Of a DNA stretch of 64,000 bases, positions 1 through 56,397 are shown piece by piece. How positions within the stretch are numbered: the first letter of the stretch is position 1; the number at the start of each line of letters is the position of its first letter. The notes below the pieces were generated by a model. It made no database searches and was not told where the DNA came from. It saw only the letters and a program-made list of their open reading frames with translations. Origin of the DNA: an uncultured Gammaproteobacteria bacterium (lineage in GTDB: Bacteria; Patescibacteriota; Microgenomatia; Levybacterales; GWA1-39-11); assembly GCA_964651815.1 (NCBI GenBank), contig CAZYWG010000001.1, positions 129,189 to 193,188 of the forward strand, written 5' to 3'. A program made the translations under genes and the position numbers.

Positions 1-276
1 GAAGACTCCGTCCCCACAACAGCTCCAACCCCAGTCCCAAGTGAAACAATTTCTCCTACGCAGGCTTTACAAACAAACGTTTTGATAACAAATACTCCAA
101 CTGGGTTTTTAAGAGTGCGGGCAACACCTTCTGTGGGAGGCACCCAAATTGCAGAAGTCAAACCTGGAGAAAAATATATATATGTAGATGAAAATGATTC
201 CTGGTTTGAAATTCAGTTAAATGACGGATCAAAAGGCTGGGTTAGTAAATCCTACACGCAAAAGGTTAACCAATAA
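1..276 (+). CDS. C-terminal fragment of a larger secreted protein: Pro/Thr-rich linker followed by a bacterial SH3 (SH3b) domain (5' partial; the frame is open from base 1)
   Basis: The frame is open from position 1 and in-frame with listed ORF 82-276. The Thr/Pro linker VPTTAPTPVPSETISPT is followed by an SH3b-like sequence GFLRVRATPSVGGTQIAEVKPGEKYIYVDENDSWFEIQLNDGSKGWVSKSY. Confidence 0.6.
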   Translation, partial: EDSVPTTAPTPVPSETISPTQALQTNVLITNTPTGFLRVRATPSVGGTQIAEVKPGEKYIYVDENDSWFEIQLNDGSKGWVSKSYTQKVNQ

Positions 277-16757: not shown

Positions 16758-16760
16758 ATT

Positions 16761-24849: not shown

Positions 24850-25395
24850 ATGCCTGATTCACCACACGTGAAGATTAATCTTATTGGGAAACAAAAAATA
24901 ACCCTTGGGGAGGATTTTTTGAGATGGGCAGTTAAGGCTGGAAGAATTATAATTGTAGTAACTGAGCTTATAGCTCTTGGCGCACTTTTATATCGCTTTA
25001 CAATTGACCGTAAAATAATTGACCTCCACGACAAAATAAAAAACGAACAACTTCTTGTAGAAAGCCAAAAGCCCAAAGAAACCACTTATAGAAGCATCCA
25101 GTCGCGTCTTGACAATGTAAAAACAATACAAGAAGAAACTAAAGCTAAAATCAATATTATGAACAGCATTGTATCGTCAATTTCCGATGGAGATTTCACC
25201 TCAACCAATATAACAGTTGATCAAAACACTATAGAAGTTCAAGGAGTCGCATTTTCAATTTTTCCTATAAATGCTTTTATAGATACTCTTAAAAAGGACC
25301 CTAATGTGACCTCTATAAGTCTTGACGATGTTACGAGCAGCAACCAAGGAGTCGGGTTTAAGATGAGTCTAGAAATAAAAGGACCAAGCTCATGA
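24850..25395 (+). CDS. PilN-like type IV pilus assembly protein (bitopic)
   Basis: Short cytoplasmic N-terminus KINLIGKQK (compare the PilN INLLP start), one TM helix, a coiled-coil region and a periplasmic-type domain. It is translationally coupled to the next gene. Confidence 0.45.
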   Translation: MPDSPHVKINLIGKQKITLGEDFLRWAVKAGRIIIVVTELIALGALLYRFTIDRKIIDLHDKIKNEQLLVESQKPKETTYRSIQSRLDNVKTIQEETKAKINIMNSIVSSISDGDFTSTNITVDQNTIEVQGVAFSIFPINAFIDTLKKDPNVTSISLDDVTSSNQGVGFKMSLEIKGPSS

Positions 25396-26018
25396 AATTC
25401 AAACTACCAAAATTTAATTCACTGAAATTTATACTTATAAAAGAGTATAGAAAATTACAAGCCTACTTAGGTACTATAAATAGCGAAAAACTTAAGGGTT
25501 ATACATATATAGTCCTCACCTTATTTACTGTTTCATTCTTTGGATTGGCCGCAATAAGCCCAACTCTAAATACTGTAATTAATTTAGATAAACAGTTTGA
25601 CGATAATTCCCTTGTTTATAATGCTCTAAAACAAAAACTCTCAAACCTAGTCTCACTTGATGAACAGTACACAAACCTACAGGATGATATAAATTCCGTG
25701 TATTCGGCAATTCCTAAGAGTCCCAAAATACCCTTACTTACGCGTCAAATAGAAAATTTAGCAAAAATGAACAATCTTATCGTTTCCAAACTAACATTCG
25801 GAACAGTAGAAATTTATCCTAATGATAAAGGAATTCCAATATATTCTTTCACATTTACAGTTGAGGTCGTAGGTAATCGTTCTGACGCGAATAATTTTAT
25901 TGCCGACATAATCAATTTTGATAGAATAGTTGGAATTGATAGAGTAGTTACAGGTGTAAATCAGGAGAAACAATATAACTTGTCCTTCACTGGACGCGCC
26001 TATTTTATACCTGACTAA
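25392..26018 (+). CDS. PilO-like type IV pilus assembly protein (bitopic)
   Basis: N-terminal TM helix and a coiled coil, then AIPKSPKIPLLTRQIENLAKMNNLIVSKLTFG, which resembles the conserved PilO core. Confidence 0.5.
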   Translation: MKFKLPKFNSLKFILIKEYRKLQAYLGTINSEKLKGYTYIVLTLFTVSFFGLAAISPTLNTVINLDKQFDDNSLVYNALKQKLSNLVSLDEQYTNLQDDINSVYSAIPKSPKIPLLTRQIENLAKMNNLIVSKLTFGTVEIYPNDKGIPIYSFTFTVEVVGNRSDANNFIADIINFDRIVGIDRVVTGVNQEKQYNLSFTGRAYFIPD

Positions 26019-26019
26019 T

Positions 26020-26328
26020 ATGCTTAAAAACCTTCTTTATTTTGCAATATTTACAACACTTATAGTTTCATCGTGGGTTGTTTTTGGAATTTACCACAGC
26101 AGCGTTACTTCAACTATAACGCCCGATACAACACTGATAATCACGCCTATCCCTTCTAGTTTTGACACCAAAACTATTAATAATATTAAAACCAGGCAAA
26201 TTATCCCCGCAGATATTTCTTTAGCAAGATCCGGGGGGGTAGCATCCAAATCTGGCACACCTTCTATTAACATCCCTTCTCCAACTTCCGTAATAGTTAA
26301 TAATTCTACTCCGTCGGCTGCTTTATGA
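26020..26328 (+). CDS. Small membrane-anchored protein with a Ser/Thr/Pro-rich tail (possibly a PilP-like accessory protein)
   Basis: 102-aa protein with an N-terminal TM helix, directly following the pilN/pilO-like genes. Confidence 0.3.
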   Translation: MLKNLLYFAIFTTLIVSSWVVFGIYHSSVTSTITPDTTLIITPIPSSFDTKTINNIKTRQIIPADISLARSGGVASKSGTPSINIPSPTSVIVNNSTPSAAL

Positions 26329-26329
26329 T

Positions 26330-27799
26330 ATGAAAAAAAAATTGTGGCATAAAAGAATTCCGACATCGGCTGCCTTTCTACTTCTTTTTATAAGTATTTG
26401 GGTAACCTCATTTCTCCTTCAAAAAGGGGCGGTTTTTATTGGCCAAGCGACACCTGATAAAACGCCGCAAAATGTTAAGATTTATAATGTGTCCGATTCT
26501 TCGTTTGCGGTTGCGTTTGCAACATATGACAAAACGGTTTCAGCGCTTCTAGTTGATGTAGACTCAAAAAATTCGAATACAATATTTGATTATAGAGACA
26601 AAAAAGGAGAAGCGAATTTTAATTCACATTTTATTGTTGTGTCTGGCCTATCTCCAAATCATAAATATTCATTTTCCATATTATCTGAGGGACAAACTTT
26701 TAATAATGGGGATTCAAAATATATTGTCAAAACCGGACCAAAAATTTCCTCAAAATCCCCAAATCAAAAGTTAATTTCCGGGAAGGTAATTCTCCCCGAT
26801 GGAACGCCTGCTCCTGACACAATTGTTCAACTTCAGGTTCCTAATGCACAAAGCATAGCTACTGTCACAGATAACAACGGCTCGTATAAAATCCAGGCGA
26901 ATATCATTAGAAGTGCCAATTTATCAACTTATATAAGACTTGGTTCATCAACTGAAATTGTATTAAAATTCTCTAATCAAAATCTTGAGTCAACTATAAA
27001 AAGCATTTACAAATCGGCCGCCACAATTCCTACAGTAACTCTTTCATATAAATATGATTTTACCCGCGTCACAAGTCAAGAATCGGCAACCGCCTCTTCA
27101 CAACTACAAGCACCCGTTCAAATTTTACAGGCTGGTGTCATAAAGATATTAAAGCCGGTGCCTGGTCAATCTTACACAGATTCTCAGCCGGTATTTCAGG
27201 GTATCGCCCTACCCACAGAAAACGTAAGTATTTTAATTAATCCGGATTCAATTAAAGCAACACTGGTTGCGGACAGGAATGGTTTTTGGTCTTATAGACC
27301 AAGTGGGCCTTTATCTCCGGGTGCTCACACTCTTACAATTAAAACCCCGAATAATCTGGGCATTTCAAAAACATTAATTGCCGATTTTAATATTTTTTCG
27401 CTTGGTACACGCGTTACGGAATCAGCGACTCCTTCCGCAACTCCCGTTATAACTTTGGCTCCCACTTTTACACCAACTCCTACTACTGTTCCGACTGTTG
27501 CTCCAACTGCGACTCCAACAATTGCAGTTCAAACTACCCAAAATCCAACTCCTACTGTTGGCACAGTATCAAATCCAACTCCTACTACCGCTCCAACTGC
27601 TGCACCTACCTTGATTGCACTTAACCCTACCTCCACTCCCACTCCAACGGTTGCAAAAGTCGCAACAAATGCGCCAACCGCGAAACCAAAATTGACAGGT
27701 GCAACTCCAGTTCCAACCGGAAGTTCGTCAACTGTAGTTTTTACATTCATTTCTGTTATATTAATAACTGCTGGAAGTGCATTATTGTTTATCCTCTAA
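26330..27799 (+). CDS. Large cell-surface protein: N-terminal signal anchor, FN3/Ig-like domains, a Thr/Pro/Ala-rich low-complexity stalk and a C-terminal hydrophobic anchor
   Basis: 489-aa protein. N-terminal TM helix. Beta-rich domains such as VKIYNVSDSSFAVAFATYDKTVSALL. PT(P/A)T-rich region. C-terminal sequence VVFTFISVILITAGSALLFIL. Confidence 0.5.
   Translation: MKKKLWHKRIPTSAAFLLLFISIWVTSFLLQKGAVFIGQATPDKTPQNVKIYNVSDSSFAVAFATYDKTVSALLVDVDSKNSNTIFDYRDKKGEANFNSHFIVVSGLSPNHKYSFSILSEGQTFNNGDSKYIVKTGPKISSKSPNQKLISGKVILPDGTPAPDTIVQLQVPNAQSIATVTDNNGSYKIQANIIRSANLSTYIRLGSSTEIVLKFSNQNLESTIKSIYKSAATIPTVTLSYKYDFTRVTSQESATASSQLQAPVQILQAGVIKILKPVPGQSYTDSQPVFQGIALPTENVSILINPDSIKATLVADRNGFWSYRPSGPLSPGAHTLTIKTPNNLGISKTLIADFNIFSLGTRVTESATPSATPVITLAPTFTPTPTTVPTVAPTATPTIAVQTTQNPTPTVGTVSNPTPTTAPTAAPTLIALNPTSTPTPTVAKVATNAPTAKPKLTGATPVPTGSSSTVVFTFISVILITAGSALLFIL
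27420..27720 (+). repeat. Low-complexity Thr/Pro/Ala-rich coding repeat region (PTxT units)
   Basis: Repeated act cct / cca act / gct cca codon blocks encoding TPTPTTVPTVAPTATPT... Confidence 0.6.
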
Positions 27800-27820
27800 A
27801 ACTGTCTTAAAATAAAACAC

Positions 27821-29104
27821 ATGAAAATTGGTATTATTGGAGCGGGATTTACTGGACTTTCTGCAGCATTCGCCTTATCAAAAAAGGGACACGACGTTGA
27901 GGTTTTTGAACGTGATGATAAGCCTGGAGGTTTAGCAATTGGATATCAAGAAAAAGAGTGGAAATGGAGCCTTGAAAAACATTACCATCATTGGTTTACA
28001 AATGATAAATTCGTATTGAATCTCGCAAAAGAAATTGGCCACAATGTAATTATTCGGCGCCCAAAAACTTCAAACTTTGTTAATGGCCGGATTTACCAGT
28101 TTGACTCTCCTCGTGACGTTTTGTCATTTCCAGAACTATCTGTATTTAACCGTCTGCGTATGGCTGCAGTAATTGCAACTTTGCGTTACGACCCTTTTTG
28201 GCAGCCGCTTGAGAAATTTAATGCAACCGAATTTTTACCTAAAACGATGGGCGAAGAAGCTTATAGATTAATTTGGGAGCCATTGTTTAAAAATAAATTC
28301 GGACCTTACTCAGATAACATTTCTCTTGCATGGTTTTGGGCAAGAATTGTAAAACGCACACCTTCTCTTGCTTATCCTGAAGGAGGTTTTCTAACTTTTG
28401 CACAGCACCTTCAGAAAGCAATAGAAAAACGAGACGGCAAATTTCAATATAATACAGAAGTTATTGATTTGTCATCAGATAAAAATCCCCACATAAAATT
28501 TTGCAGGGTCGGAACAACTGAAACAAAATTGAAAAGTTATGACAAAGTTATAGTTACACTTCCTTCCTTCCAATTTCTAAAAATCGCACATAATTTACCT
28601 GACGAGTATAAAAATAAATTTGTAAAACTTAAAGGTCTTGGCGCAACCAATCTTATTCTTCGTCTCAAAAAACCATTTTTTCAAGATAATACGTATTGGC
28701 TTAGTATCTGTGATCCAACCTCTCCCATTATGGCAATTGTAGAACATACAAATTTTATGGACAAAAAAAATTATAACAATGAACACCTAGTTTATCTTGG
28801 AAATTATTTACCTGCAGATCACACGAGATTTACTATGGACAAAGTAGAAAAGTTAAAACTTTTTGATTCTTTTTTAAAAAAAATCAATCCCGAGTATAAA
28901 AAGAGTTTAATAGATTATGAGCTATTCAAAGCTCCATTCGCTCAACCAATTATACCGGTTAACTATTCAAAAAATATTCCTCAACATAATACTCCCCTTA
29001 AGAATGTGTATTTAGCAAATATTGAACAGGTTTACCCATGGGACAGGGGGACAAATTATGCTGTTGAACTTGGAGAAAAAATAGCAAATATTGTTTTTAA
29101 TTAA
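27821..29104 (+). CDS. FAD/NAD(P)-binding oxidoreductase of the amine-oxidase/phytoene-desaturase/protoporphyrinogen-oxidase superfamily
   Basis: N-terminal Rossmann fold MKIGIIGAGFTGLSAAFALSKKGHDVEVFERDDKPGG. It is the first gene of a co-directional operon of overlapping genes. Confidence 0.7.
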   Translation: MKIGIIGAGFTGLSAAFALSKKGHDVEVFERDDKPGGLAIGYQEKEWKWSLEKHYHHWFTNDKFVLNLAKEIGHNVIIRRPKTSNFVNGRIYQFDSPRDVLSFPELSVFNRLRMAAVIATLRYDPFWQPLEKFNATEFLPKTMGEEAYRLIWEPLFKNKFGPYSDNISLAWFWARIVKRTPSLAYPEGGFLTFAQHLQKAIEKRDGKFQYNTEVIDLSSDKNPHIKFCRVGTTETKLKSYDKVIVTLPSFQFLKIAHNLPDEYKNKFVKLKGLGATNLILRLKKPFFQDNTYWLSICDPTSPIMAIVEHTNFMDKKNYNNEHLVYLGNYLPADHTRFTMDKVEKLKLFDSFLKKINPEYKKSLIDYELFKAPFAQPIIPVNYSKNIPQHNTPLKNVYLANIEQVYPWDRGTNYAVELGEKIANIVFN

Positions 29105-31320
29105 TGGACTTTCAAAGCATATCTTCTCTTGCCTATTTTGTTTCTTTTCTTCTCCTTATAACTTGCCTTGGAATTCCAATTGTGTTTCTTCTTTTTAAAA
29201 AAAACGGGGATCATGGTTTTGCTTTTTCAAAGCTTTCTGTAATTCTTATTTTATCTTTCACTTCTTGGCTTATAGGATATATGGGAGAGGTATATATTTT
29301 TAAAACAATTTTGGCAGAATTTTTAATAATCGCAATTATTTCCTCGATTGTTTTTTTTAAAAATAAAAAAGACTTAATTAAAACTCTCAAATCTAGCAAA
29401 AAGATATTTATTTTTGAGGAACTTATTTTTTGGATTTTCTTCTTTTCTTTTATCTTAATTCGCGTAGGTAACCCAGACTTATGGCACCCTGTCATGGGTG
29501 GCGAAAAACCGATGGATTTTGCCTTCTTAAATGCAATGGTAAGAACAACTTCTCTTCCACCATTTGACCCATGGTTTGCAGGAAGTACTATCAATTATTA
29601 CTATTTTGGGCAATTTATAGGCGCGACAATTATTAAGCTATTAAATATTCCTTCTGCTATATTCTATAATCTTTTTCTTTCATACCTTTTTGCTCAAGCC
29701 GCGGTGGGCGCAGCATCAATTATTTTTTCATTCACGAAAAATAAGGCGTTTTCATTATTGGGAAGCTTCTTTCTTTTGGTATCAGGCAATTTAGCACAGA
29801 TTCCCGTAATCATTGGCTCATTCAAAACCGCTATTCCTATAAATGGGTGGTATTGGACAGCAACACGAATTATGCCAAATTTTGAAATAAATGAATTTCC
29901 ATTTTTTACATTTCTTTATGCAGATCTCCACTCTCACCTAATTGCGCTTCCCATAGATTTATTTTTAATTGCTCTTCTAACTGAATTTTATCAACTCTTG
30001 AAATCCCAGGAATTAATGCGAGCAACGTTTTTAGTAATTCTCGCATCAATTGTTCTTGGAATATTACGAATGACAAACATATGGGACTACCCTAGCTTTT
30101 TGCTATTTACTTTTTTAGTTATCTTTTTATCAATCTTACATTTTTCAAAAAAAAGCGTTTTTAAACGACTCTTAATAGCGGGTTTCTTATCCGCAATTTC
30201 AGTTGTAGTAAGTAATCTTTCTATTCTACCTTTTATTATTTTTTATAAAACCGGCCCTCTTGGCGCAACAATTTACACAGAGCACCCCACGCGAATATCT
30301 GATTATGTTTTAATTCATGGATTCTTTTTGTTTATATTAATTACTTTCTTTATTGTATTTATTAAATTTAAAAATATTTTTACTCTTTCCAAGATATATA
30401 GGCTCTTTTTGTTTATACCGTTGGCAATTTGCGTTATTTTACTCTCAAAAAGTTTGATCTTTCTAGCATTTATTTCTTTCCTAATTTCATTAACTTTTAT
30501 CACCTTTGTGATAAACAGAAATGACAAACTGGCACCTCCAGTAATTCTATTAATCTTTGCACTTTTCTTGACTTCAATTCCCGATATTATCGACATAAAA
30601 CTCGGTCTCGGAAGAATGAATACCGTTTTTAAATTCTATTTTCAAGGATGGATATTTTTTGCACTTGGATCATCGATTGCCTCATTTTTTATTTTCGAGA
30701 AGATTAAAAAACACTCAACCGTAAAAATCGTCGTAATGGTAATTTTCTTTGTATTATTTGGCGGAACGCTTTTGTATCCCGTGACAGCCACACCTGCAAA
30801 AATTAATGACAGAATGGGGCTAGATAGACGTCCCACTTTAAATGGCGAGCACTACATGAATAATTCCATTTACTACGACAAAGAGGAAAGTATCCCTCTC
30901 CGTTATGACATGTTTGCCATTGATTGGATTAAAAAAAATATAGAAGGAAAACCTGTAATTCTTGAGGCGTCTGTCCCTATTTATCGCTGGGGAAGCCGCA
31001 TCTCAATATATACAGGACTCCCTACTGTACTTGGTTGGGATTGGCACGAAATTGCGCATAGACAATATCTTCCGGCATCAGATATCCAAATCCGCACTGC
31101 TCAAATTCAACAAATATATGAATCAAATGATTTTGAAGCAACAAAAAAACTTTTGGTACTATATAATATTTCATATATTTATTTAGGTCAACTTGAGAAA
31201 GCGTATTACAATACGTCTGGTATTAGAAATATAATTGTTAAACATCCGGCATTTTTTGTGGAAGTTTACAAAAATCCACAAGTTACTATCTATAAGTTTT
31301 TGAATGGAAGATCTTATTAA
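29104..31320 (+). CDS. Chlor_Arch_YYY / DUF2298-like polytopic membrane protein (738 aa), first paralog; probably a GT-C-type transferase
   Basis: About 16 or more TM helices. Motifs EKPMDFAFLNA, DPWFAG, INYYYFG (the YYYxG motif) and GLPTVLGWDWHE. The ATG overlaps the stop of the upstream oxidoreductase. Confidence 0.6.
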   Translation: MDFQSISSLAYFVSFLLLITCLGIPIVFLLFKKNGDHGFAFSKLSVILILSFTSWLIGYMGEVYIFKTILAEFLIIAIISSIVFFKNKKDLIKTLKSSKKIFIFEELIFWIFFFSFILIRVGNPDLWHPVMGGEKPMDFAFLNAMVRTTSLPPFDPWFAGSTINYYYFGQFIGATIIKLLNIPSAIFYNLFLSYLFAQAAVGAASIIFSFTKNKAFSLLGSFFLLVSGNLAQIPVIIGSFKTAIPINGWYWTATRIMPNFEINEFPFFTFLYADLHSHLIALPIDLFLIALLTEFYQLLKSQELMRATFLVILASIVLGILRMTNIWDYPSFLLFTFLVIFLSILHFSKKSVFKRLLIAGFLSAISVVVSNLSILPFIIFYKTGPLGATIYTEHPTRISDYVLIHGFFLFILITFFIVFIKFKNIFTLSKIYRLFLFIPLAICVILLSKSLIFLAFISFLISLTFITFVINRNDKLAPPVILLIFALFLTSIPDIIDIKLGLGRMNTVFKFYFQGWIFFALGSSIASFFIFEKIKKHSTVKIVVMVIFFVLFGGTLLYPVTATPAKINDRMGLDRRPTLNGEHYMNNSIYYDKEESIPLRYDMFAIDWIKKNIEGKPVILEASVPIYRWGSRISIYTGLPTVLGWDWHEIAHRQYLPASDIQIRTAQIQQIYESNDFEATKKLLVLYNISYIYLGQLEKAYYNTSGIRNIIVKHPAFFVEVYKNPQVTIYKFLNGRSY

Positions 31321-32257
31321 AGCAAGAAAGAAAACTCGCAGAGGTTTTCAGGACGAAGATTGGCCAGATCATTACCTTGAAAAAGTGGCTTGTCCGCTGT
31401 GCAAAAGTGATTCCTATAAAAAACTCTACCCAGACTCTTACCGAAGGATCGTGAGGTGTAATAAGTGTCATCTGATATACACTAACCCGCGTCTTAAAAA
31501 AATCCATTTGAAACACCTTTATTCGCAGGAGTACTTCCAAAATACAAATTCTTCCCATTTTGGATACGAAAACTATTTGGATGATGAAGAAAAAATTGTT
31601 AAAACTTTCGCAAAAAGGATGTCTGCGATTGAAAGAGAGTTTGGCCGAGGGAAAAAGGGGAATATCTTAGACATTGGATGCGCAACCGGTTTTTTCTTAA
31701 AAGCAGCAAAAGACGCCGGCTGGCAAGTTGAAGGAGTCGAGATTTCAGAATTTGCTGCCAACTACGCTAAAAATCACTTTAAATTTAAGGTCTACTGTGA
31801 AGATTTTTTAGATATTAAAATTTCAGAAAAGTTTGATGTTATCACAATGTGGGACGTTATAGAACACTTCTATAATCCGCAAGCTGCAATTGAAAAAGCA
31901 AATAAACTTTTAAAACCCGGGGGCTTACTTGTTTTGTCAACGCCAGATGTTGCTTCACTACCGGCCAAAATAACCCGCCACAAATGGGTAGGTTACAAAC
32001 TTTCAGATGAACACTTAACTTATTTTTCTCCCAAAACTATGAAAATCTTCCTTGAAAATTCAGGGTTATCGATTGTGAGGAATGGACATGTTGGAAAACA
32101 CGTTTCACTTGATATGCTTCAGGACAGAGCATCAATTTATAGTCCTGCTTTGGGCCGCGCATTTTCTATTGCAAAACGATTTTTCCCTAAAAATTACTTT
32201 CTTTACATCAATCCATTTGACATAATGTGTGTATATGCAAAGAAAATTCTTTCATAA
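31304..32257 (+). CDS. Class I SAM-dependent methyltransferase with an N-terminal Zn-ribbon
   Basis: Zn-ribbon CPLCKS...CNKCH. SAM motif I ILDIGCATGFF. Acidic motif II-like sequence DVITMWDVIEH. Confidence 0.8.
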   Translation: MEDLIKARKKTRRGFQDEDWPDHYLEKVACPLCKSDSYKKLYPDSYRRIVRCNKCHLIYTNPRLKKIHLKHLYSQEYFQNTNSSHFGYENYLDDEEKIVKTFAKRMSAIEREFGRGKKGNILDIGCATGFFLKAAKDAGWQVEGVEISEFAANYAKNHFKFKVYCEDFLDIKISEKFDVITMWDVIEHFYNPQAAIEKANKLLKPGGLLVLSTPDVASLPAKITRHKWVGYKLSDEHLTYFSPKTMKIFLENSGLSIVRNGHVGKHVSLDMLQDRASIYSPALGRAFSIAKRFFPKNYFLYINPFDIMCVYAKKILS

Positions 32258-32285
32258 TTTCCAAGACACGCTTTCCACTTGATGA

Positions 32286-33989
32286 ATGAAATATAGAGAA
32301 AAAATTTTACTTGGATTAATATTGGCCGGGGCTTTTTTTTTGAGGTCGTACCACATTAATTGGGATCAGGGAACACATCTTCATCCCGATGAGCGTGCAA
32401 TTGTCATGAATACGCTCCCGCTTGCACTTCCCCAAAGCTTATCCCAATTTTTAAGCGTCGCGAGCCCACTTAACCCACACTTTTTCCCTTATGGAAACTT
32501 TCCGCTTTATCTTTTAAAGGCCATTTCAACATTTGCAGCAATATTTAACCATCACCTTGCTGAATATAATGGAATTGAACTTGTTGGTCGATTTATCTCC
32601 TCGCTTATTGATATACTCACGATTTTGTTAATCTTTAAAATGACAAGAATTCTGTTTGGAGAAAAGGCAGGATTTGCAGCAGCTATTATTTATGCACTTT
32701 CTGTTTTCCCAATACAAGCTTCTCATTTTTATGCAGTAGATATACTTTTAACTTTTTTTACAACCTTAACACTTTTCCGTCTTCTACTATTTCATACAAA
32801 ACCCAACATTCTTAATGCAGCATTTGTTGGCATATCTTTTGGACTTTCTCTAGTCACAAAAATAAGCGCTATTCCGCTATTTGCTGCCATAGTTGGAGCC
32901 ATTTCTATAGATTTTGTATTAATTCTTGTGAAAGCTCCACATAAATACAATGTTTGGCTTCCTCATGTTCCAATATTTTTAAAACGGCTGATTCGAGATC
33001 TTCTTTCGATTGGTTTTTTTACCACCCTTACTTTTGTCATTTTTCAACCGTATGCTCTGATTGATTCTAAAGAATTCATTTCTCAAAATTTGCTTCAATC
33101 TCAAATGAGCAATAATGCTTATATTTTCCCGTATACCCTACAGTATGTTGGAAAAATTCCATATTTTTACGAACTAAAGAATTTATTTTTATGGGGGCAA
33201 GGACCTGTAATATCATTATTGTGTCTTTTGGGTGTTTTATTTTTTGCATTGAATTACAAAAATTATCCAAAAGAAGCAAAGTCCAAGACTTTAATAATTC
33301 TATCGTTTTTACTAATTTATTTCTTAATTATTGGAAAATTCGCGGTGGGATGGATGAGATACATGTTACCACTTTATCCGCTACTTAGTATTTTTGGAGG
33401 AACTTTTTTACTTTTTTTAGTTGACAAATATTTTAAGCCTATAAAATTTAACTTTGTAAAAATTTCATTAGGTATCGCAATTTTATTGTTACTTTTAATT
33501 TGGCCAATTTCATTCATGTCGATTTATCAAAAAACAAACACCCGAGTAGCCGCAACAGATTGGATAAATAAAAACATTCCAACCGGTTCACCAATTGCCA
33601 TTGAACACTGGGATGACCAATTACCGCTGTACTCGTCAAATAACTATAATTTCATTATCCTAACGCTTTACGACCAACCCGACGACAAAACAAAATGGGC
33701 TATTATGTCCCAGAAAATAAAAGCCGCAAAATATATTATCATCGCGTCCAATAGGCTTTACATACCACTACAAAAACTTTCTGATTGTAAAAAGTTTAAA
33801 GAATGTTTCCCCTTAACCGCACAGTATTATAAAAATTTATTCTCCGGGAAGCTGGGATTCAAAAAAATTGCAGAATTTTCGTCTTATCCCACTATTCCAG
33901 TATTAAACTTGCAGATTAATGACCAAGGGGCAGACGAGTCATTTACAGTCATTGATCACCCGAAAGTGTATATTTTCAAAAAGGTGTAA
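32286..33989 (+). CDS. GT-C fold glycosyltransferase (ArnT/PMT-like)
   Basis: 567-aa polytopic protein. The first extracytoplasmic loop carries a DE motif (HLHPDERAIVMNT) and there is a C-terminal soluble domain. Confidence 0.55.
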   Translation: MKYREKILLGLILAGAFFLRSYHINWDQGTHLHPDERAIVMNTLPLALPQSLSQFLSVASPLNPHFFPYGNFPLYLLKAISTFAAIFNHHLAEYNGIELVGRFISSLIDILTILLIFKMTRILFGEKAGFAAAIIYALSVFPIQASHFYAVDILLTFFTTLTLFRLLLFHTKPNILNAAFVGISFGLSLVTKISAIPLFAAIVGAISIDFVLILVKAPHKYNVWLPHVPIFLKRLIRDLLSIGFFTTLTFVIFQPYALIDSKEFISQNLLQSQMSNNAYIFPYTLQYVGKIPYFYELKNLFLWGQGPVISLLCLLGVLFFALNYKNYPKEAKSKTLIILSFLLIYFLIIGKFAVGWMRYMLPLYPLLSIFGGTFLLFLVDKYFKPIKFNFVKISLGIAILLLLLIWPISFMSIYQKTNTRVAATDWINKNIPTGSPIAIEHWDDQLPLYSSNNYNFIILTLYDQPDDKTKWAIMSQKIKAAKYIIIASNRLYIPLQKLSDCKKFKECFPLTAQYYKNLFSGKLGFKKIAEFSSYPTIPVLNLQINDQGADESFTVIDHPKVYIFKKV

Positions 33990-34026
33990 TTGTAAAAAGA
34001 ATTTTTATTGTTTAAAATGTATTTTT

Positions 34027-35064
34027 ATGCAAACCGTTCTTATTACAGGTGGTGCCGGCTTTCTTGGAGTGCATTTATCCCGCTTCTTACTCGCAAAGGG
34101 TCTTAAAGTAATTTGCCTTGATATTGAAGAAATAACCGCGTCTGATATCAAAAAAAGAGTTTCATATGTTAACGTTGATATCAGAAATAAAAACGAGCTC
34201 ATCCGTGCATTTAAAAACGTAGACTTCATTGTTCATGCTGCTGCCGCTCTTCCCATAATTCATAGTAAAAACGAAATATTTAAAACAAATATTGACGGAA
34301 CAGAAAATGTACTTGACGCAGCATTTACAAACAAAGTAAAACGTTTAGTCTTTATTTCTAGCACTGCCGTTTATGGGGTCCCAAAACATTTACCCGAAAC
34401 TGAAGGAGATCTTATTAAACCAATAGGCTATTACGGTGAGTCAAAAGTGGCCGGCGAAAAATTATCCCTTTCTTATCAAAAAAAAGGTTTACAAGTAAAT
34501 ATTATTCGTCCCAAAACATTTTTAGGGCCAGAGAGGCTCGGGGTCTTTACCCTTTGGTTTGAAGCAATATATAAAAACAAACCAGTTTTCATTTTGGGGT
34601 CTGGAGATAATTTATATCAGCTCCTTGAAGTTAATGATTTATGCGATGCTATTTATAACGCGCTCACAATTAAAAAATCTGGGGAGGTTTTTAATGCCGG
34701 GGCGCAAGAATTTAGGACCTGGAGGGAGGATCTAGGTGCATTAATAAAACATGCAAAATCAAAATCAAAAATTGTAGGCTTCCCTGTTTTACCTTCACAA
34801 TTAGCACTTTCAGTTCTTGAAAAATTAAATCTTTCACCAATCGTTGCGTGGCATTATAAAACACTTCCAATTAATTCTTACGTAAGTATAGAAAAGGCAA
34901 AAAAGATTTTAAATTTTAAACCAAAAAAAGGGAACCAAGATATTTTAATTGAGAGTTATGATTGGTATGCTAAAAATAGGAAAAAATTTATTGGAAAAAC
35001 AGGAAACACCCATAGAACACTTTGGAATTTTAAATTGCTTGATATTTTTGACAAATTATCATGA
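34027..35064 (+). CDS. NAD-dependent epimerase/dehydratase (SDR family, UDP-sugar epimerase-like)
   Basis: MQTVLITGGAGFLGVHL has the GxxGxxG motif, and the catalytic YxxxK sits in YGESKVAGEK. The listed ORF start at 33919 overlaps the upstream gene, so the ATG at 34027 is preferred. Confidence 0.85.
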   Translation: MQTVLITGGAGFLGVHLSRFLLAKGLKVICLDIEEITASDIKKRVSYVNVDIRNKNELIRAFKNVDFIVHAAAALPIIHSKNEIFKTNIDGTENVLDAAFTNKVKRLVFISSTAVYGVPKHLPETEGDLIKPIGYYGESKVAGEKLSLSYQKKGLQVNIIRPKTFLGPERLGVFTLWFEAIYKNKPVFILGSGDNLYQLLEVNDLCDAIYNALTIKKSGEVFNAGAQEFRTWREDLGALIKHAKSKSKIVGFPVLPSQLALSVLEKLNLSPIVAWHYKTLPINSYVSIEKAKKILNFKPKKGNQDILIESYDWYAKNRKKFIGKTGNTHRTLWNFKLLDIFDKLS

Positions 35065-35615
35065 AGACAAAAATTGGGTTTGATTTTGACAAAATATTTG
35101 TATCATATCCTCCAATTATTCCGGGCTTTTTAATTGAATATTTATATAAGAAGAAAAACCATAATCTTTCTTATAGAATCCCTGGTAAGGTAGAGCAAAA
35201 GATAAGGGTTCTCTCTCATACACCAATTTTTCGTCGTCCTATAAAATCTAACATTGATGCACTTAAAAAAATTTTTGATTCAAAGGAATTTAAAATATAC
35301 TTAATTTCAAGCAGGTTTTCATTTTTAAAAAAAAGGACAGATGACTGGAACCATAAACACAAACTCTCCAGTTTTTTTGAAAACATGTACTTTAACTTTG
35401 ATGATAAACAACCGCATATTTTTAAAAAAACAATCATTAAAAAGGAAGGTATTCAAAAGTTTGTGGATGATGATCTTGATCTTTTGCGATATCTTGCTAA
35501 AGAAAACGAGGACGTACAATTTTATTGGCTGAGTGATAATCATCATTTGACAAAATTACCGGAAAATATCAAAAAAATTAAAAATTTGGAAGAATTTAGA
35601 ATTAAATATTTATGA
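35061..35615 (+). CDS. Hypothetical protein, possibly a HAD-like phosphatase
   Basis: 184-aa protein. FDFDKIF is a motif I-like DxD sequence. VDDDLD is motif IV-like. Translationally coupled to both neighbours. Confidence 0.3.
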   Translation: MKTKIGFDFDKIFVSYPPIIPGFLIEYLYKKKNHNLSYRIPGKVEQKIRVLSHTPIFRRPIKSNIDALKKIFDSKEFKIYLISSRFSFLKKRTDDWNHKHKLSSFFENMYFNFDDKQPHIFKKTIIKKEGIQKFVDDDLDLLRYLAKENEDVQFYWLSDNHHLTKLPENIKKIKNLEEFRIKYL

Positions 35616-37762
35616 TCACACAAGATTTTCTGTATGTTCTCCAGTGGTGGATTCCCTTTTTTATATTGGGAATAGTTTTTTTCCCGTTAACATCTCTTGT
35701 ATTTGAAAACTTTTTGGATAAAGGTTATATTTTTTCAAGAGTAATTGCTATTGGTATAATCTCCTATGTTGTTTTTGTAATTAACGAACTTCACCTCCTA
35801 AAATTTAATACTCCTACGATTCTATTTGTTGTCTTTCTTTTTCTTATTGTTAATATTTTGATTTTTCATAAAACTAAATCCATTAACTTCAAAAAAATAA
35901 ATTACAAAATCATTATTTTTGAAGAGCTTTTATTTTTAGTAGGAATTATTATTTGGTCTTATGTCAGAGCACATGAACCAAGTATTAATGGACTTGAAAA
36001 GTTTATGGACTTTGGATTTCTGAATTCTATTTTAAGATCTGATTATATGCCACCAACTGATATGTGGTTTACACCGCTACCAATAAATTATTACTATTTT
36101 GGTCACCTAAGCACTGCCGTTATTACCAAACTCTCTTTTTTACCATCATTTTTAACATTTAATCTAATGATAGCAACTCTGTTTTCTTTTACATTTAGTC
36201 TTTCTTTCTCTCTTGCTTCAAACTTAATTTCTAAAGCTATTTCTGTTAAAAAAGGAATTTTTGGAGGATTTATTACGGCAATTCTTTTAACTTTTGGAGG
36301 TAACCTTCACATGATTTATGCATTATTTAAACCGTATGATGTAACCAACCCTGTCCCCTTTTGGAAACTTTCATTTTCCCCGCTTACTTTCCCAAATAGC
36401 TATTGGTATCCAAATGCAACGCGTTTTATTCCCTACACTATCCATGAATTCCCAATTTATTCATTTGTTGTATCCGATCTTCACGGGCATGTAATTGACA
36501 TAATGTACGTGCTCTTATCAATTACTTTAATCTACGCCCTTTTTATTAAAAAGGGGATTGATAAGGTGACACTCGTTTTAATATCTTTTTTCCTTGCAAT
36601 AATGTACATGACAAATGCGTGGGATGGTGGAATTTATTTAATGCTAGTGTGCATAATACTATTCATCAAAAATTGGCACTATATAAAAATCCGTAAAGGT
36701 CAAAAAATCTTATCAATTCTTAACCATCTTGAATTATCTAATATTAAAGTTTTTTTAACAAAACTTTTTAAACCTGCTATTAGCACTTTTATTTTATTTG
36801 TTATTTTTTCACTCCCGTTTAACATCTATTTTCAGACAGGGGCGATAGTACATGGTATTGGAGTTGTCTGCGCGCCAAGTTTTCTGACTAATATTGGTCA
36901 CTTGGGCCCGTTCTTATTTGAAGCGTCACATTGCCAAAAATCCACATGGTGGGAACTCTTAACTCTTTACGGATTTTTCTACTTTTTTGTTTTATCGTTT
37001 TTGATTTTTATATCCCGGAGCAAAAAATTGAATTTGCTAACTGAAGACTTCTTTATTTTAGCGTTAATTCTAATTTCAACTCTATTGATAATTATTCCAG
37101 AATTTTTCTATCTTAAAGATATTTATCCTGCTCATTATCGTGCAAATACCATGTTTAAACTTGTTTACCAAGCATTTATGATGCTCTCGATTGTTTCGGT
37201 TTACGTTTTAGTCAGAATTTTGAATAAAACAAAAAATATTTTCTTTTACATCATGAGTGCAATTTTAATCATCCCAATTCTTATCTATCCTTATTTTGCA
37301 ATTAGGTCATATTATGGAGATTTTAAGAACTATACTGGAATTAATGGTTCGCTTTATCTTAAAACACGCTACCCGGATGATTACTCTGCAATAAACTGGA
37401 TAAATACCAACATTCAGGGCCGACCGGTGATGGTAGAAGCACAAGGCGATTCTTACACGGATTACGAAAGGATTTCAGCAAATACAGGCCTTCCAACAAT
37501 TCTTGGCTGGACAGTCCATGAATGGCTTTGGCGTGGGACGTATGATATTCCAGCACCGCGAATTCAAGAAGTCAAAGATGTTTATGAAAATCCGGATGTT
37601 AATAAAACACGACAGATATTAAAAAAATACAATGTGCAGTATGTTTATATAGGAACACTTGAGCATCAAAAATATGTAAATTTAAAAGAGGACAAATTTG
37701 ATAAACTTGGTAAAGTGGTTTTCCAGCAAGGACAAACAACAATCATTAAACTATCTATTTAA
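35612..37762 (+). CDS. Chlor_Arch_YYY / DUF2298-like polytopic membrane protein (716 aa), second paralog
   Basis: Same architecture and motifs as the 29104-31320 gene: EKFMDFGFLNS, DMWFTP, INYYYFG and GLPTILGWTVHEWLW. Confidence 0.6.
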   Translation: MITQDFLYVLQWWIPFFILGIVFFPLTSLVFENFLDKGYIFSRVIAIGIISYVVFVINELHLLKFNTPTILFVVFLFLIVNILIFHKTKSINFKKINYKIIIFEELLFLVGIIIWSYVRAHEPSINGLEKFMDFGFLNSILRSDYMPPTDMWFTPLPINYYYFGHLSTAVITKLSFLPSFLTFNLMIATLFSFTFSLSFSLASNLISKAISVKKGIFGGFITAILLTFGGNLHMIYALFKPYDVTNPVPFWKLSFSPLTFPNSYWYPNATRFIPYTIHEFPIYSFVVSDLHGHVIDIMYVLLSITLIYALFIKKGIDKVTLVLISFFLAIMYMTNAWDGGIYLMLVCIILFIKNWHYIKIRKGQKILSILNHLELSNIKVFLTKLFKPAISTFILFVIFSLPFNIYFQTGAIVHGIGVVCAPSFLTNIGHLGPFLFEASHCQKSTWWELLTLYGFFYFFVLSFLIFISRSKKLNLLTEDFFILALILISTLLIIIPEFFYLKDIYPAHYRANTMFKLVYQAFMMLSIVSVYVLVRILNKTKNIFFYIMSAILIIPILIYPYFAIRSYYGDFKNYTGINGSLYLKTRYPDDYSAINWINTNIQGRPVMVEAQGDSYTDYERISANTGLPTILGWTVHEWLWRGTYDIPAPRIQEVKDVYENPDVNKTRQILKKYNVQYVYIGTLEHQKYVNLKEDKFDKLGKVVFQQGQTTIIKLSI

Positions 37763-38921
37763 CGCCATTTGTGGGCGTCTCCCCAACTTTTGTTATCCCT
37801 TCCTTTCCAACTGTACAAACACTACCTTCTGTAATACATGCCACATAATCATGTATTTCCGAAAAGTCATTTTCGCCTACGCGTGGTGAAAGAATAAACT
37901 GAAATTGCTTATCTGATGTTGGGACGGGTTGTGATAAAAGTCCAAATGTACCCTGATAAACGTTGCCTGAATCAATCACATAACTTTGTGTTTTTGCATT
38001 TTGCATTTTGCGTGCGAGATTTATAAAATCATCATATTCATTAGCTTGAATATCAGTATCAATATTACTTTTTAATATATTAAAAATTCCAAATATTTTG
38101 ACGGGATTAAGAATAATCCCTAAGGATAAAACTTTTTCTTTAACTGCTGAAATTACTTCTTGTTGACGCTTGCTCCTTGCAAAATCAGATCCTTCTTCAC
38201 CTACTCCGTGACGCGACCGAGAAAATTCTAGTGCTAAATTTCCATCCATATGTTGAAGCCCAGCATTTACATGCAGGTGAACATAACGGCATGGGAAATA
38301 TGTCCAAATATCCTGTTCTGCTGACGCGGTTGCCGTAAAATCTTTAATATCTTGATCAGAATGATCACAAGTATCCGCTTCTTTTCCTTCAACTGGATAA
38401 TTATAATCATCAAGAGTATGAGAGACATTCACATCAACACCTCCCAAATAATCAATCAATTTAACAAAACCCGAAAAATCAATAACAACAACGTAGTCAA
38501 TTGGAACTCCGGCTACTTTCTCAACAACTGCTTTGGCATAAAGCTTTCCCTGATTATTTTGTTTCTGTCCAAGCGCGTAGGCTAAATTAATTTTACCCTT
38601 TATATCATCAACCCACAGATCTCGTGGAATGGAAATTAGACCCGCAGAGTCTTTTGAAGGATTTACCATTGCAAGAATAATGGTGTCTGTTAAATCAGGG
38701 CCGTCATGTGTTCCACCACCTCGACCTAGTATTAAAATATTTATATTACCGCTTTTTTCTTCTTTTAATTGAAGCTTTTGGTTAAGAACAAATTTATAAA
38801 TTAAGTAAGACGCGGCAATCAAAAATATTGCTAGAATAATAATTATAAAAGGGTTATTTTTTTTAAGCATTTTTAACAATTGAGGCAAAACTTTCGGGGT
38901 CGCGGCTTGATCTACCAACAA
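37755..38921 (-). CDS. LytR-CpsA-Psr (LCP) family cell-envelope polymer transferase
   Basis: N-terminal TM helix, then ILILGRGGGTHDGPDLTDTIILAMVNPSKDSAGLISIPRDLWV, the LCP core motif. The start is probably the internal Met near 38870. Confidence 0.8.
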   Translation of the reverse strand: MLVDQAATPKVLPQLLKMLKKNNPFIIIILAIFLIAASYLIYKFVLNQKLQLKEEKSGNINILILGRGGGTHDGPDLTDTIILAMVNPSKDSAGLISIPRDLWVDDIKGKINLAYALGQKQNNQGKLYAKAVVEKVAGVPIDYVVVIDFSGFVKLIDYLGGVDVNVSHTLDDYNYPVEGKEADTCDHSDQDIKDFTATASAEQDIWTYFPCRYVHLHVNAGLQHMDGNLALEFSRSRHGVGEEGSDFARSKRQQEVISAVKEKVLSLGIILNPVKIFGIFNILKSNIDTDIQANEYDDFINLARKMQNAKTQSYVIDSGNVYQGTFGLLSQPVPTSDKQFQFILSPRVGENDFSEIHDYVACITEGSVCTVGKEGITKVGETPTNGVK

Positions 38922-55452: not shown

Positions 55453-56397
55453 ATGAAGAAAAAAATTTCAGCAATCATTGCATGTTATAAAGACGGAGAA
55501 GCAATTCCTGTGATGTATAAAAGACTTTCCGAAACTTTCAAGGCATTGAAAATTGATTATGAAATAATTTTTGTAAACGATGGCAGTCCTGATAATTCAG
55601 AGGAGGTAATAAGTAAAATCGTTGCAAAAGATGGACACGTTATAGGAATTAACCACTCAAGAAATTTCAGCTCCCAAATGGCATTTACAAGCGGAATGGA
55701 TATCTCAACGGGCGACGCAATTGTTTTTCTGGACGGAGACTTGCAAGACCCTCCTGAGATAATAAAAGACTTCTATAAAAAATGGATTGAAGGATATGAT
55801 GTCGTTTATGGTATCAGAGCAAAACGCGAAGCACCAATGTGGATGGCTCTTTCTTATAAATTATTTTATAGAATTTTTAATAAAATGTCCTACATAAAAA
55901 TGCCATTGGACGCTGGAGACTTTTCACTTATTGATAGGAGAGTGGTTGAAGTTTTAAAACAGTTTCCTGAAAGAGATAGGTTTCTACGGGGTCTTCGCGC
56001 TTGGGTAGGCTTTAAGCAAACTGGAATAAAATACGTAAGACCGGAAAGAATGTTTGGAAAAACAACAAATAATCTGTTCAAAAACATCAATTGGGCATTT
56101 AAAGGTATATTTTCTTTTTCGTATGTACCTTTGCAAATTATGACACTTATTTCTTTCTCAATATTTGTTTTGGCAATTATTGGAATTATTTTCCAAATTA
56201 TTATCCGTCTTTTTTTCAACGTAACCCCGCAAGGAACCACTACTGTTTTAATCGTCATATTATTTTTAGGTGCATTGCAACTTCTTGGCATAAGTATTCT
56301 TGGACAATATATGGGGAAAATTTTTGAGGAAGTAAAATTACGTCCAAAATATATTGTAAAAAGTATTATTAAACATTCCAACCCTCGTAGAAAATAA
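55453..56397 (+). CDS. Polyprenyl-phosphate glycosyltransferase of the GtrB/DPM1 type (GT2 domain with two C-terminal TM helices)
   Basis: IIACYKDGEAIPVMY...IIFVNDGSPDNSEEV...FLDGDLQDPPE contains the DxD motif. Two C-terminal TM helices. Confidence 0.85.
   Translation: MKKKISAIIACYKDGEAIPVMYKRLSETFKALKIDYEIIFVNDGSPDNSEEVISKIVAKDGHVIGINHSRNFSSQMAFTSGMDISTGDAIVFLDGDLQDPPEIIKDFYKKWIEGYDVVYGIRAKREAPMWMALSYKLFYRIFNKMSYIKMPLDAGDFSLIDRRVVEVLKQFPERDRFLRGLRAWVGFKQTGIKYVRPERMFGKTTNNLFKNINWAFKGIFSFSYVPLQIMTLISFSIFVLAIIGIIFQIIIRLFFNVTPQGTTTVLIVILFLGALQLLGISILGQYMGKIFEEVKLRPKYIVKSIIKHSNPRRK

Follow-up and report, generated by a model that had tools for sequence, protein, structure and literature searches.

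The stretch of DNA analysed here, called the window throughout, comprises 64,000 nucleotides (nt) of contig CAZYWG010000001.1 (GenBank assembly GCA_964651815.1, positions 129,189 to 193,188 of the forward strand), from an uncultured bacterium that GTDB places in the Levybacterales of the Patescibacteriota, within the candidate phyla radiation (CPR). It contains a run of co-directional genes, two of which encode large membrane proteins of the DUF2298/TIGR03662 family, designated YYY1 and YYY2. An initial annotation had described seven genes sharing start and stop codons and had suggested that they serve the synthesis and transfer of a lipid-linked glycan. All seven are present on the forward strand at the coordinates listed in Table 1, and overlaps occur at four of the six junctions: 1 nt (TAATG) between the gene for a flavin adenine dinucleotide (FAD)-dependent oxidoreductase and YYY1, 17 nt between YYY1 and the methyltransferase gene, and 4 nt on either side of the gene for a small haloacid dehalogenase (HAD)-like protein, which stands between a short-chain dehydrogenase/reductase (SDR) and YYY2. 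The other two junctions are short gaps, of 28 nt between the methyltransferase and PMT_2 genes and of 37 nt between the PMT_2 and SDR genes. The latter figure holds if the SDR gene starts at 34027; the first ATG in its open reading frame (ORF) is at 33919, and 34027 was taken because the resulting product of 345 residues has the length of its orthologs (345-346 aa).

Four further co-directional genes precede the FAD enzyme, encoding a PilN-like protein, a PilO-like protein, a 102-residue transmembrane (TM) protein and a Big_13 surface protein, with gaps of -4, 1, 1 and 21 nt. The array is probably one of eleven genes, spanning 24850-37762, and larger than the operon first noted. Orthologs of its opening genes show a PilO match and a faint PilN match in Pfam. 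At its far end a LytR-CpsA-Psr (LCP) gene converges on YYY2 and overlaps its 3' end by 8 nt; on the other strand, a MurJ gene is found some 0.5 kb before the array begins, at a distance of 3.5 kb from the FAD gene. A consensus scan for promoters and terminators gave counts no higher than those in shuffled sequence and does not fix the ends of the array. The best forward-strand promoter-like site of the region in that scan, itself not above the shuffled expectation, is at 24815-24843, just upstream of 24850.

Table 1. Features of the window discussed in the text, with positions counted from its first nucleotide.
Feature	Position	Strand	Length	Remarks
PilN-like (181 aa), PilO-like (208 aa) and 102-aa TM protein	24850..26328	+		open the co-directional array
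Big_13/fn3 surface protein with Pro/Thr-rich stalk	26330..27799	+	489 aa	weak Big_13 and fn3 matches
FAD-dependent oxidoreductase	27821..29104	+	427 aa	stop overlaps YYY1 start
YYY1, DUF2298/TIGR03662 GT-C protein	29104..31320	+	738 aa	
S-adenosylmethionine-dependent methyltransferase (Methyltransf_23)	31304..32257	+	317 aa	
PMT_2-type GT-C protein	32286..33989	+	567 aa	PF13231, E 7e-14
Extended SDR, "epimerase/dehydratase"	34027..35064	+	345 aa	PF01370, E 1.4e-43
Small HAD-superfamily phosphatase-like protein	35061..35615	+	184 aa	
YYY2, second DUF2298/TIGR03662 GT-C protein	35612..37762	+	716 aa	
LCP glycopolymer ligase	37755..38921	-		PF03816, E 2.9e-35; TIGR00350, 106 bits
DPPRS-like UbiA-family protein (polyprenyl-phosphate phosphoribosyltransferase-like)	266..1207	-		27 kb from the operon; candidate source of a lipid-linked pentofuranose donor
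WecA/MraY-like phosphotransferase	1200-2261	-		second glycan cluster
Protein with about three TM segments, no Pfam match	2265-2663	-	132 aa	could be a small flippase
Weak PMT_2 GT-C protein	2602-4104	-		second glycan cluster
GT2 glycosyltransferase	4101-5594	-		second glycan cluster
GtrB/PgfS/ArnC-like GT2	55453..56397	+		18 kb from the operon; Glycos_transf_2, E 8e-25; PgfS 233 bits and ArnC 160 bits, both below cut-off

Family, fold and candidate active site of the YYY proteins

YYY1 and YYY2 are true paralogs that align end to end (29% identity, E 6e-54), and both belong to the family proposed for them in the initial annotation, scoring 497.2 and 494.4 bits against TIGR03662 (cut-off 300.25) and 320 bits (E 3.7e-95) and 311 bits (E 2e-92) against PF10060 (cut-off 27.8 bits). 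The motifs that had been quoted for the pair, including INYYYFG, are present in both proteins. In an alignment of 56 homologs with 30-59% identity to YYY1, YYY2 included, the YYYxG and GW.WH motifs are invariant (Y165-Y166-Y167 and G169; G644, W645 and H648), as are E134, K135, M137, D138, D155, W157, D274, H276, H278, N325, D328, R504, K510 and R653. D125 is kept in at least 90% of these sequences, and YYY2 retains every invariant column. The YYY proteins contain 13-15 hydrophobic segments. Homology searches returned no self-match for YYY1 or YYY2, a database artefact that arises because the 90%-identity protein clusters holding the two have fragments of 49-51 aa as their representatives. The family is large: the first 600 pattern matches, at one genome per species, yielded at least 593 DUF2298/TIGR03662 relatives. 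A search of one literature library found no functional study of DUF2298/TIGR03662 and no description of it as GT-C, only two passing mentions and, otherwise, papers on unrelated Y_Y_Y beta-propellers.

A search of PDB sequences with the YYY profile (E<=10) gave only chance matches to triosephosphate isomerase (TIM) and no oligosaccharyltransferase; with no solved structure detectable in this way, a comparison of folds was needed. YYY1 was modelled with AlphaFold2 from the alignment of 56 sequences, with a pLDDT of 94.9 and a pTM of 0.95. The top nine Foldseek matches of this model are all GT-C enzymes (DPY19, STT3, AftA and AglB, E 9e-7 to 2.5e-4), while every transporter matched has E>0.9, so the model has the GT-C-like rather than the transporter-like fold. 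Values from fold comparison were 18.6 for ALG12, 16.8 for Pmt4, 15.9 for STT3B, 15.7 for ArnT, 15.3 for Pmt2, 15.3 for AftA (483 residues aligned) and 14.9 for both AglB and PglB, with AftD, AftB, PIG-M, ALG3 and DPY19 lower, down to 11.1. In the model, a GT-C membrane core is preceded by three additional TM helices at the N-terminus and followed, outside the membrane, by an AglB-like C-terminal domain, which corresponds to the globular "central core" domain that is a feature of STT3, AglB and PglB. Judged by this model, the YYY proteins very probably have a GT-C fold.

The GT-C partner gene in the operon, called ArnT-like in the initial annotation, is of the PMT_2 type. In the family of this partner, W26-D27 and H33-P34-D35-E36-R37 are invariant and follow TM helix 1 immediately, and the C-terminal domain carries an E-H-W-D motif. 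Comparison of profiles by hhalign showed the two families to be collinear, with YYY 95-733 set against PMT_2 1-567 at a probability of 95% (E 9e-9) in global mode and 62.6% (E 7e-5) in local mode. The alignment pairs YYY H128-P129...E134-K135 with the partner's H33-P34-D35-E36-R37, and a C-terminal "A.DWI.KNI" motif is shared. From this distant homology, therefore, the YYY proteins appear to be a remote branch of the PMT/ArnT-like GT-C enzymes that carries three N-terminal TM helices and a family-specific insertion in addition. They differ from PMT_2-, ArnT- and PMT-type enzymes (GT83, GT39) in that neither YYY1 nor YYY2 has a PMT_2 match in Pfam, in possessing family models of their own, and in their YYYxG and DxHxH motifs. 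No TIGR03663 match was found for either. The YYY proteins are thus members of DUF2298/TIGR03662, assigned by fold to the GT-C superfamily, and not members of STT3, PMT_2 or TIGR03663.

The TM helix at YYY 99-122 is preceded by a K-rich segment (87-98), while the loops that follow contain neither Lys nor Arg. This distribution of charge is consistent with a TM1 that runs from the cytoplasm outward and a first loop (EL1) that is external. The conserved acidic residues D125, E134 and D138 come directly after this helix, and the family-specific insertion carries E264 and D274-x-H276-x-H278. We infer that E134 and D138, together with D274-x-H276-x-H278, make up an outward-facing catalytic site that binds metal and phosphate. 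ArnT binds metal via a Glu and an H-x-H, and the YYY residues may be analogous to these, a likeness we offer as a lead only.

Family matches, the GT-C fold, invariant motifs and a recurring neighbourhood support the main claims of the interpretation as lipid-linked glycan synthesis and transfer. Our preferred reading, to which we give a probability of roughly 0.6, is that YYY1 and YYY2 are catalytically competent GT-C glycosyltransferases belonging, with the PMT_2-type protein, to a three-enzyme module that builds a surface glycan from polyprenyl-phosphate-linked sugars. Outside the cytoplasm, the module would take sugars from polyprenyl-phosphate-linked donors and add them stepwise to a surface acceptor.

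A rival reading is the activity of an oligosaccharyltransferase (OST), in which a preassembled glycan is transferred en bloc from polyprenyl-(pyro)phosphate to protein, as by AglB, PglB and STT3 or by enzymes of the TfpW/PglL type, with GW.WH taking the acceptor-binding role of WWDYG. Full-length STT3, AglB and PglB are among the best fold matches of YYY1, but YYY1 and YYY2 match no STT3 family in Pfam or NCBIfam (E<=0.01), nor does the YYY profile match any PDB sequence of this kind. The invariant G644-W645-x-W-H648 lies within the AglB-like domain; it is not a literal WWDYG, however, and it stands about 75 residues past the final TM helix. Since a homologous C-terminal domain is present in the PMT_2 partner as well, this domain is not specific to OSTs. 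The three extra N-terminal helices, the insertion with E264 and D274-x-H-x-H, and the occurrence of YYY modules in twos and threes, fused to another GT-C, likewise distinguish them from the GT66 enzymes. A Pro/Thr-rich surface protein encoded in the same array would be a suitable acceptor, and cytoplasmic GT4 and HAD genes could build a lipid-linked oligosaccharide, but three GT-C modules in series fit stepwise addition better than a single en-bloc transfer. We consider en-bloc transfer quite unlikely.

The three GT-C genes in Chloroflexota and CPR bacteria

Scanning one genome per species gave 80 loci with about 30% identity, every one of them from Chloroflexota. In 78 of these, a YYY1-type module is preceded directly, in the same uninterrupted frame, by a full-length homolog of the PMT_2 protein encoded in the window, and the remaining two are cut by contig ends. 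ORFs defined by their start codons confirm the fusions, as in locus L013 (8006-12298, 1,430 aa) and locus L014, where a protein of 2,482 aa (7847-15295) is followed by an 800-aa YYY2-type gene. Seven loci (L011, L014, L035, L036, L079, L087 and L088) have a single PMT_2-YYY-YYY ORF of about 2,000-2,500 aa, and their second YYY modules group in a clade apart (bootstrap 100/100). In 39 loci there is a separate YYY gene downstream, whose score against YYY2 exceeds that against YYY1; Dehalococcoidia carry the PMT_2-YYY1 fusion only. All three modules keep the invariant YYY and PMT_2 motifs even when fused. In a neighbour-joining tree, a YYY2-type clade made up of CPR YYY2 proteins and the separate Chloroflexota genes stands apart from all YYY1-type and fused modules, again at 100/100 bootstrap; by this split, YYY1 and YYY2 are ancient, separate lineages inherited together as a pair, rather than recent duplicates.

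The three GT-C genes of the window match a trio conserved across two phyla. The in-frame PMT_2-YYY1 fusion is strong evidence for physical or obligatory functional coupling, and PMT_2, YYY1 and YYY2 would work as a physical complex or in an obligatory order, for example as priming, extending and capping enzymes. In Anaerolineae, the trio is preceded by genes for an SDR, a GT4, a methyltransferase and a further PMT_2 protein. A conserved multi-TM gene (578-616 aa, no Pfam match) follows the YYY2-type gene in four Anaerolineae loci (L008, 15999-17753; L010, 17163-19013; L014, 17778-19592; L062, 15150-16886), and no homolog of it was found in the 64-kb window. Its L062 copy scores 55.8 bits against TIGR03663/Agl23, below the cut-off of 126.

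The initial annotation had proposed conservation of the neighbourhood as a test of the operon, and the neighbourhood does recur in related CPR genomes, with the GT-C core recurring in Chloroflexota as well. CPR loci whose YYY1 is 41-59% identical to that of the window share a gene order of PilO-like protein, Big_13 protein, FAD enzyme, YYY1, methyltransferase, PMT_2, a variable slot, a protein of about 180 aa, YYY2 and, often, LCP. The slot holds an SDR in the window and in L006, L091 and L092, a second methyltransferase in L001, and a GT4 with another PMT_2 gene in L004. The methyltransferase adjoins YYY1 in L001-L007, the 184-aa HAD-like protein adjoins YYY2 in every CPR locus examined, and wherever that side of a CPR locus was recovered, the gene immediately before the FAD enzyme is the one for the Big_13 protein. 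LCP occupies the same position in L001, L006/L007 and L093, and is missing from it in L004.

Housekeeping genes on the flanks (GroEL, LepA, MurJ, S20, TIM, UvrD and FemAB) are syntenic across the same CPR loci, and gene order in CPR alone is therefore weak evidence. It could be argued from this synteny that the YYY genes act in some unrelated process and merely sit, by inheritance, among envelope genes. The array's overlapping starts and stops speak against such an argument, as does a HAD-GT4 fusion located beside a DUF2298 gene. What largely refutes it is the fusion of PMT_2 to YYY1 in 78 of 80 loci of a different phylum, with a YYY2-type gene directly downstream in 39, because drift in gene order cannot explain in-frame fusions and an assembly artefact across 78 independent genomes is unlikely. 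We therefore judge it very improbable that the synteny is without functional meaning.

Either YYY protein, both of them, or the PMT_2 partner might instead be flippases or scramblases of lipid-linked sugars, or non-catalytic subunits that bind the carrier lipid. The operon has no dedicated flippase gene, and purified Agl23 of Haloarcula hispanica, from a PMT-like multi-TM family, flips lipid-linked glycans in proteoliposomes (PMC11182771). TIGR03663, named for "flippase activity-associated protein Agl23", is weakly matched by the gene after the Anaerolineae YYY2 and by six of 11 members of the PMT_2-partner family (best E 4e-9). Members of this family also weakly match archaeal STT3 and ArnT. 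All the TIGR03663 matches, however, fall far short of the cut-off; the window's PMT_2 protein has no match to this NCBIfam model, and neither it nor the YYY proteins are members. The YYY proteins, moreover, have invariant Glu, Asp and His where PMT-type enzymes carry their catalytic DE motif, as well as a conserved external domain, a pattern typical of catalysis, and the motifs are kept by all three modules even when fused. A role of these proteins solely as flippase or scaffold strikes us as improbable.

Several observations weigh against our preferred reading of a three-enzyme glycosyltransferase module. The trio is not universal: some Levybacteria-like genomes have a PMT_2-like gene in the place of YYY1, with the FAD enzyme, PMT_2, SDR, small protein and YYY2 retained. 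Synteny within CPR may be due in part to common descent. The FAD enzyme, HAD protein, LCP and same methyltransferase were not found beside Chloroflexota YYY genes at E<1e-5, and therefore fall outside the universal core; the SDR and methyltransferase of Anaerolineae score at most 66 bits against those of the window, or do not match, and their orthology is not demonstrable. By sequence comparison, demonstrable orthology between CPR and Chloroflexota is limited to the three GT-C genes, and the FAD enzyme, methyltransferase, SDR and HAD protein are lineage-specific or related at the superfamily level only. The evidence on fold is a predicted model, and the clustering of invariant residues in a single outward-facing site, like the equation of GW.WH with WWDYG, is inferred from it. 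A GT-C fold is no proof of transferase activity, and the related Agl23 family is reported as flippase-associated.

Accessory enzymes and the proposed lipid-linked donor

The labels proposed for the accessory genes all proved sound. The FAD oxidoreductase has an FAD/amine-oxidase fold (PF01593) and scores 398 bits (cut-off 252) against PRK07233, an NCBIfam family named just "hypothetical protein". Structurally it falls in the group of phytoene desaturase, protoporphyrinogen oxidase and UDP-galactopyranose mutase, with phytoene desaturase as its closest fold, and its nearest named relatives are from Candidatus Levybacteria/Patescibacteria. It is 64-79% identical over more than 100 CPR clusters, while the adjacent YYY1 is at most 59% identical to any relative; to judge from these identities, the FAD enzyme is far more tightly constrained than the transferases encoded after it. 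The methyltransferase matches Methyltransf_23 (E 7.9e-29) and has an N-terminal C30-x2-C33...C52-x2-C55 pattern that resembles a zinc ribbon. The epimerase gene encodes an extended SDR. Its best NCBIfam match is HpnA-like, at 107 bits and below cut-off, and its PDB matches are to NSDHL and GalE-like enzymes (about E 1e-20).

The 184-aa protein has no Pfam match above threshold, only faint matches to HAD_2 and LNS2, and its HAD-like label is nevertheless upheld by family-wide motifs and profile matches. Across 50 family sequences D8, D10, R85 and D137 are invariant and K122 is kept in at least 90%, giving a consensus of FDLDGV / YLITxR / K / DDDxD that reproduces the four HAD motifs. In a PDB comparison of the family profile, 11 of 13 matches are to HAD-type phosphatases or a small HAD-like hypothetical protein, the best to Pnkp1 (E 1e-3) and others to 2obb, a deoxyribonucleotidase, AphA, a BT2127-type pyrophosphatase and a beta-phosphoglucomutase-like protein. 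The protein is predicted from these motifs to be a HAD phosphatase. An exhaustive search for homologs found 142 representative clusters; ten of ten long homologs tested are HAD-GT4 fusions, and one of these adjoins DUF2298-LCP-TIM-UvrD in another CPR genome. The functional partner of the HAD protein would therefore be a GT4 enzyme, in a layout like that of synthase/phosphatase pairs. We rejected its identification with the phosphoribose-phosphatase (PRP) domain of polyprenyl-phosphoribose synthases, since the ten long homologs carry GT4 rather than UbiA and no PRP match was found at the PDB level. Together, the cytoplasmic FAD enzyme, SDR, methyltransferase and HAD phosphatase, with GT4 in relatives, would make or modify the lipid-linked donor or primer, and turnover of these cytoplasmic genes between close relatives would diversify the glycan.

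Kelly et al. (2024) described three-component systems in which polyprenyl-phosphoribose synthases feed external GT-C enzymes (GT136) with undecaprenyl-phosphate (Und-P)-ribofuranose, and one SDR epimerase by itself switches ribofuranose (Ribf) to xylofuranose (Xylf) (PMC11127046). More elaborate pentofuranose systems have multiple GT-C enzymes and epimerases (PMC11127046), to which a commentary adds FAD-dependent oxidoreductases for Bacillus (PMC11194591). The logic resembles that of the array, with a polyprenyl-phosphate-sugar donor, external GT-C enzymes, an optional SDR epimerase and elaborate multi-GT-C/FAD versions. The array differs in that it has no PRP-UbiA fusion synthase, the window's UbiA protein being 27 kb away and without a PRP domain, and no MATE flippase, and in that its HAD-like family is fused to GT4 and not to UbiA.

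Within the preferred reading, and compatible with it, the donor could be a pentofuranose. The GT-C enzymes would use polyprenyl-phosphate Ribf or an epimer, arabinofuranose (Araf) or Xylf, made from phosphoribosyl pyrophosphate (PRPP) by a UbiA-type synthase; the FAD enzyme, the SDR or both would carry out oxidation and reduction of the ribose on its lipid carrier, in the manner of DprE1/DprE2 or ORF13, and the sugar would switch according to whether the SDR is present or absent. The DPPRS-like UbiA protein of the window falls just under both NCBIfam cut-offs for decaprenyl-phosphate phosphoribosyltransferase (NF008977, 219.6 bits against 234; NF008978, 206.8 against 207), but it lies in a cluster of its own with another GT-C. 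UbiA homologs that do pass, at 264.5 and 275.7 bits, are found 6-9 kb upstream of the Anaerolineae PMT_2-YYY1 gene; such homologs occur in eight loci at the edge of the flank covered, on the opposite strand, however, and with an unrelated FtsJ gene in between. The SDR slot varies among close relatives, and ORF13 of C. youngae alone switches Ribf to Xylf (PMC11127046); in the systems of Bacillus, several GT-C enzymes occur together with FAD oxidoreductases and NAD(P) epimerases (PMC11194591). Phytoene desaturase, the closest fold to the FAD enzyme, handles a long isoprenoid substrate. AftA, AftB and AftD are among the fold matches of YYY1, yet arabinosyltransferases score no better there than mannosyl- or oligosaccharyl-transferases. 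The HAD-like protein is not a PRP domain, and none of the eleven genes of the array encodes a flippase of the MATE or SMR type. A pentofuranose donor is thus possible, and we propose it tentatively. The GT2 at 55453-56397 could alternatively supply a polyprenyl-phosphate hexose or N-acetylhexosamine donor.

Assembly of mycobacterial arabinan (UbiA/DPPRS, DprE1/DprE2, AftA-D, EmbA-C, Lcp1) offers a possible wider parallel, in which external GT-C enzymes act in series on a lipid-linked donor. The window has a DPPRS-like UbiA, an FAD enzyme and an SDR in the cassette, an adjacent LCP ligase, and the fold matches to AftA, AftB and AftD. The parts differ: the FAD enzyme has an amine-oxidase/phytoene-desaturase fold, not the DprE1 fold, and the SDR is an extended SDR that is dispensable in close relatives.

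Candidate acceptors, comparisons and other glycan genes of the window

The Big_13 protein has a stalk in which 52 of 100 residues (363-462) are Pro or Thr, followed by a C-terminal hydrophobic anchor. All six orthologs (window, L001, L004, L006, L091 and L092) have a Pro/Thr-rich stretch (33-52%) that leads into a Gly/Ser-rich motif, G-S-S in most of them, with a TM anchor behind it. This C-terminus looks like a sorting or anchoring signal, with a layout comparable to that of PGF-CTERM- or LPXTG-type signals that come after O-glycosylated Thr-rich linkers. Pro/Thr-rich surface proteins such as this one, O-glycosylated by the module, are our leading candidate for the acceptor, at rather less than even odds. 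We entertain with more reserve a lipid-linked wall polymer that the adjacent LCP ligase would attach later, the position of the LCP gene next to the array being the reason for this lead, and we think a lipoglycan unlikely. Dehalococcoidia, which are not known to have peptidoglycan, have only the PMT_2-YYY1 pair, and this mildly favours a protein or lipid acceptor for that pair.

Glycosylation of surface proteins by such enzymes has precedents. In streptococci, pairs of GT-A and GT-C enzymes O-glycosylate external, disordered Ser/Thr-rich regions, and the Pgf cluster contains an epimerase gene and two GT-C genes that adjoin the genes of their substrates (bioRxiv 10.1101/2024.05.05.592596). In the Pgf and GtrB/PgtC2 pathways, a GT-A enzyme makes the Und-P-sugar, after which one or two GT-C enzymes act (bioRxiv 10.1101/2024.05.05.592596). 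The window is similar, since one product of the array is a Pro/Thr-rich surface protein and a PgfS-like GT2 is encoded 18 kb from the operon; it differs in that the GT-C enzymes of streptococci belong to the YfhO family rather than to DUF2298. TfpW is a GT-C enzyme that arabinosylates type IV pilin.

The system, as we read it, is external glycosylation with lipid-linked sugars by GT-C enzymes, which is a known kind of process and no categorically new mechanism. What is new is the assignment of DUF2298 as GT-C and AglB-like, together with a set of residues that are candidates for catalysis; the fusion of PMT_2 to YYY1 in nearly all Chloroflexota loci; the ancient divergence of YYY1 from YYY2; the link between HAD and GT4; and the leads on donor and acceptor. 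A bolder version, which we regard as doubtful, is that PMT_2, YYY1 and YYY2 are a hitherto unrecognised, physically coupled assembly line of three GT-C enzymes, joined in a single polypeptide in some Chloroflexota, which makes a major surface glycan in lineages with one membrane and no lipopolysaccharide (CPR/Patescibacteria and Chloroflexota), that it is supplied by a new route to lipid-linked sugar donors in which a flavoenzyme like phytoene desaturase rather than one of the DprE1 type oxidises the polyprenyl-phosphate sugar, and that DUF2298 would form a new GT-C family in CAZy with an OST-like acceptor-binding domain.

The GT-C assignment makes a large orphan family testable, with residues to mutate, a fixed enzyme partner and a short list of donors and acceptors, and points to how the surface may be built in two poorly understood groups, the Chloroflexota and the CPR bacteria, which are mostly uncultivated episymbionts. 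The Chloroflexota fusions (1,430-2,480 aa) are attractive targets for cryo-electron microscopy of the hand-over of a glycan between consecutive GT-C enzymes.

Two other regions of the window carry glycan genes. A second envelope-glycan cluster (266-5594, reverse strand), with overlapping genes, resembles a three-component polyprenyl-phosphoribose system. A third region (47295-61842) encodes a GT2, two methyltransferases, a NodU/CmcH-type carbamoyltransferase, an SDR, a split transketolase, the PgfS/ArnC-like GT2, a second zinc-ribbon Methyltransf_23 protein that is a paralog of the one in the operon, several multi-TM proteins without a Pfam match, and a GT87 (PimE-like) GT-C enzyme. With the operon and the second cluster, this brings the GT-C genes in 64 kb of a small CPR genome to five, a number suggesting that the organism invests heavily in glycosylation outside the cytoplasm.

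De novo purine synthesis is often missing in CPR bacteria. The window has a block of purine-synthesis genes at 12610-20392 (PurF-like, PurN-like, PurM-like, a PfkB kinase, PurQ and PurL), situated between LepA and MurJ. These two genes are adjacent in the syntenic loci L001 and L006, so the block looks like an insertion, unless the relatives have lost it. A gene on the reverse strand, at 43254-43784, codes for a nickel superoxide dismutase (Sod_Ni, E 3e-32).

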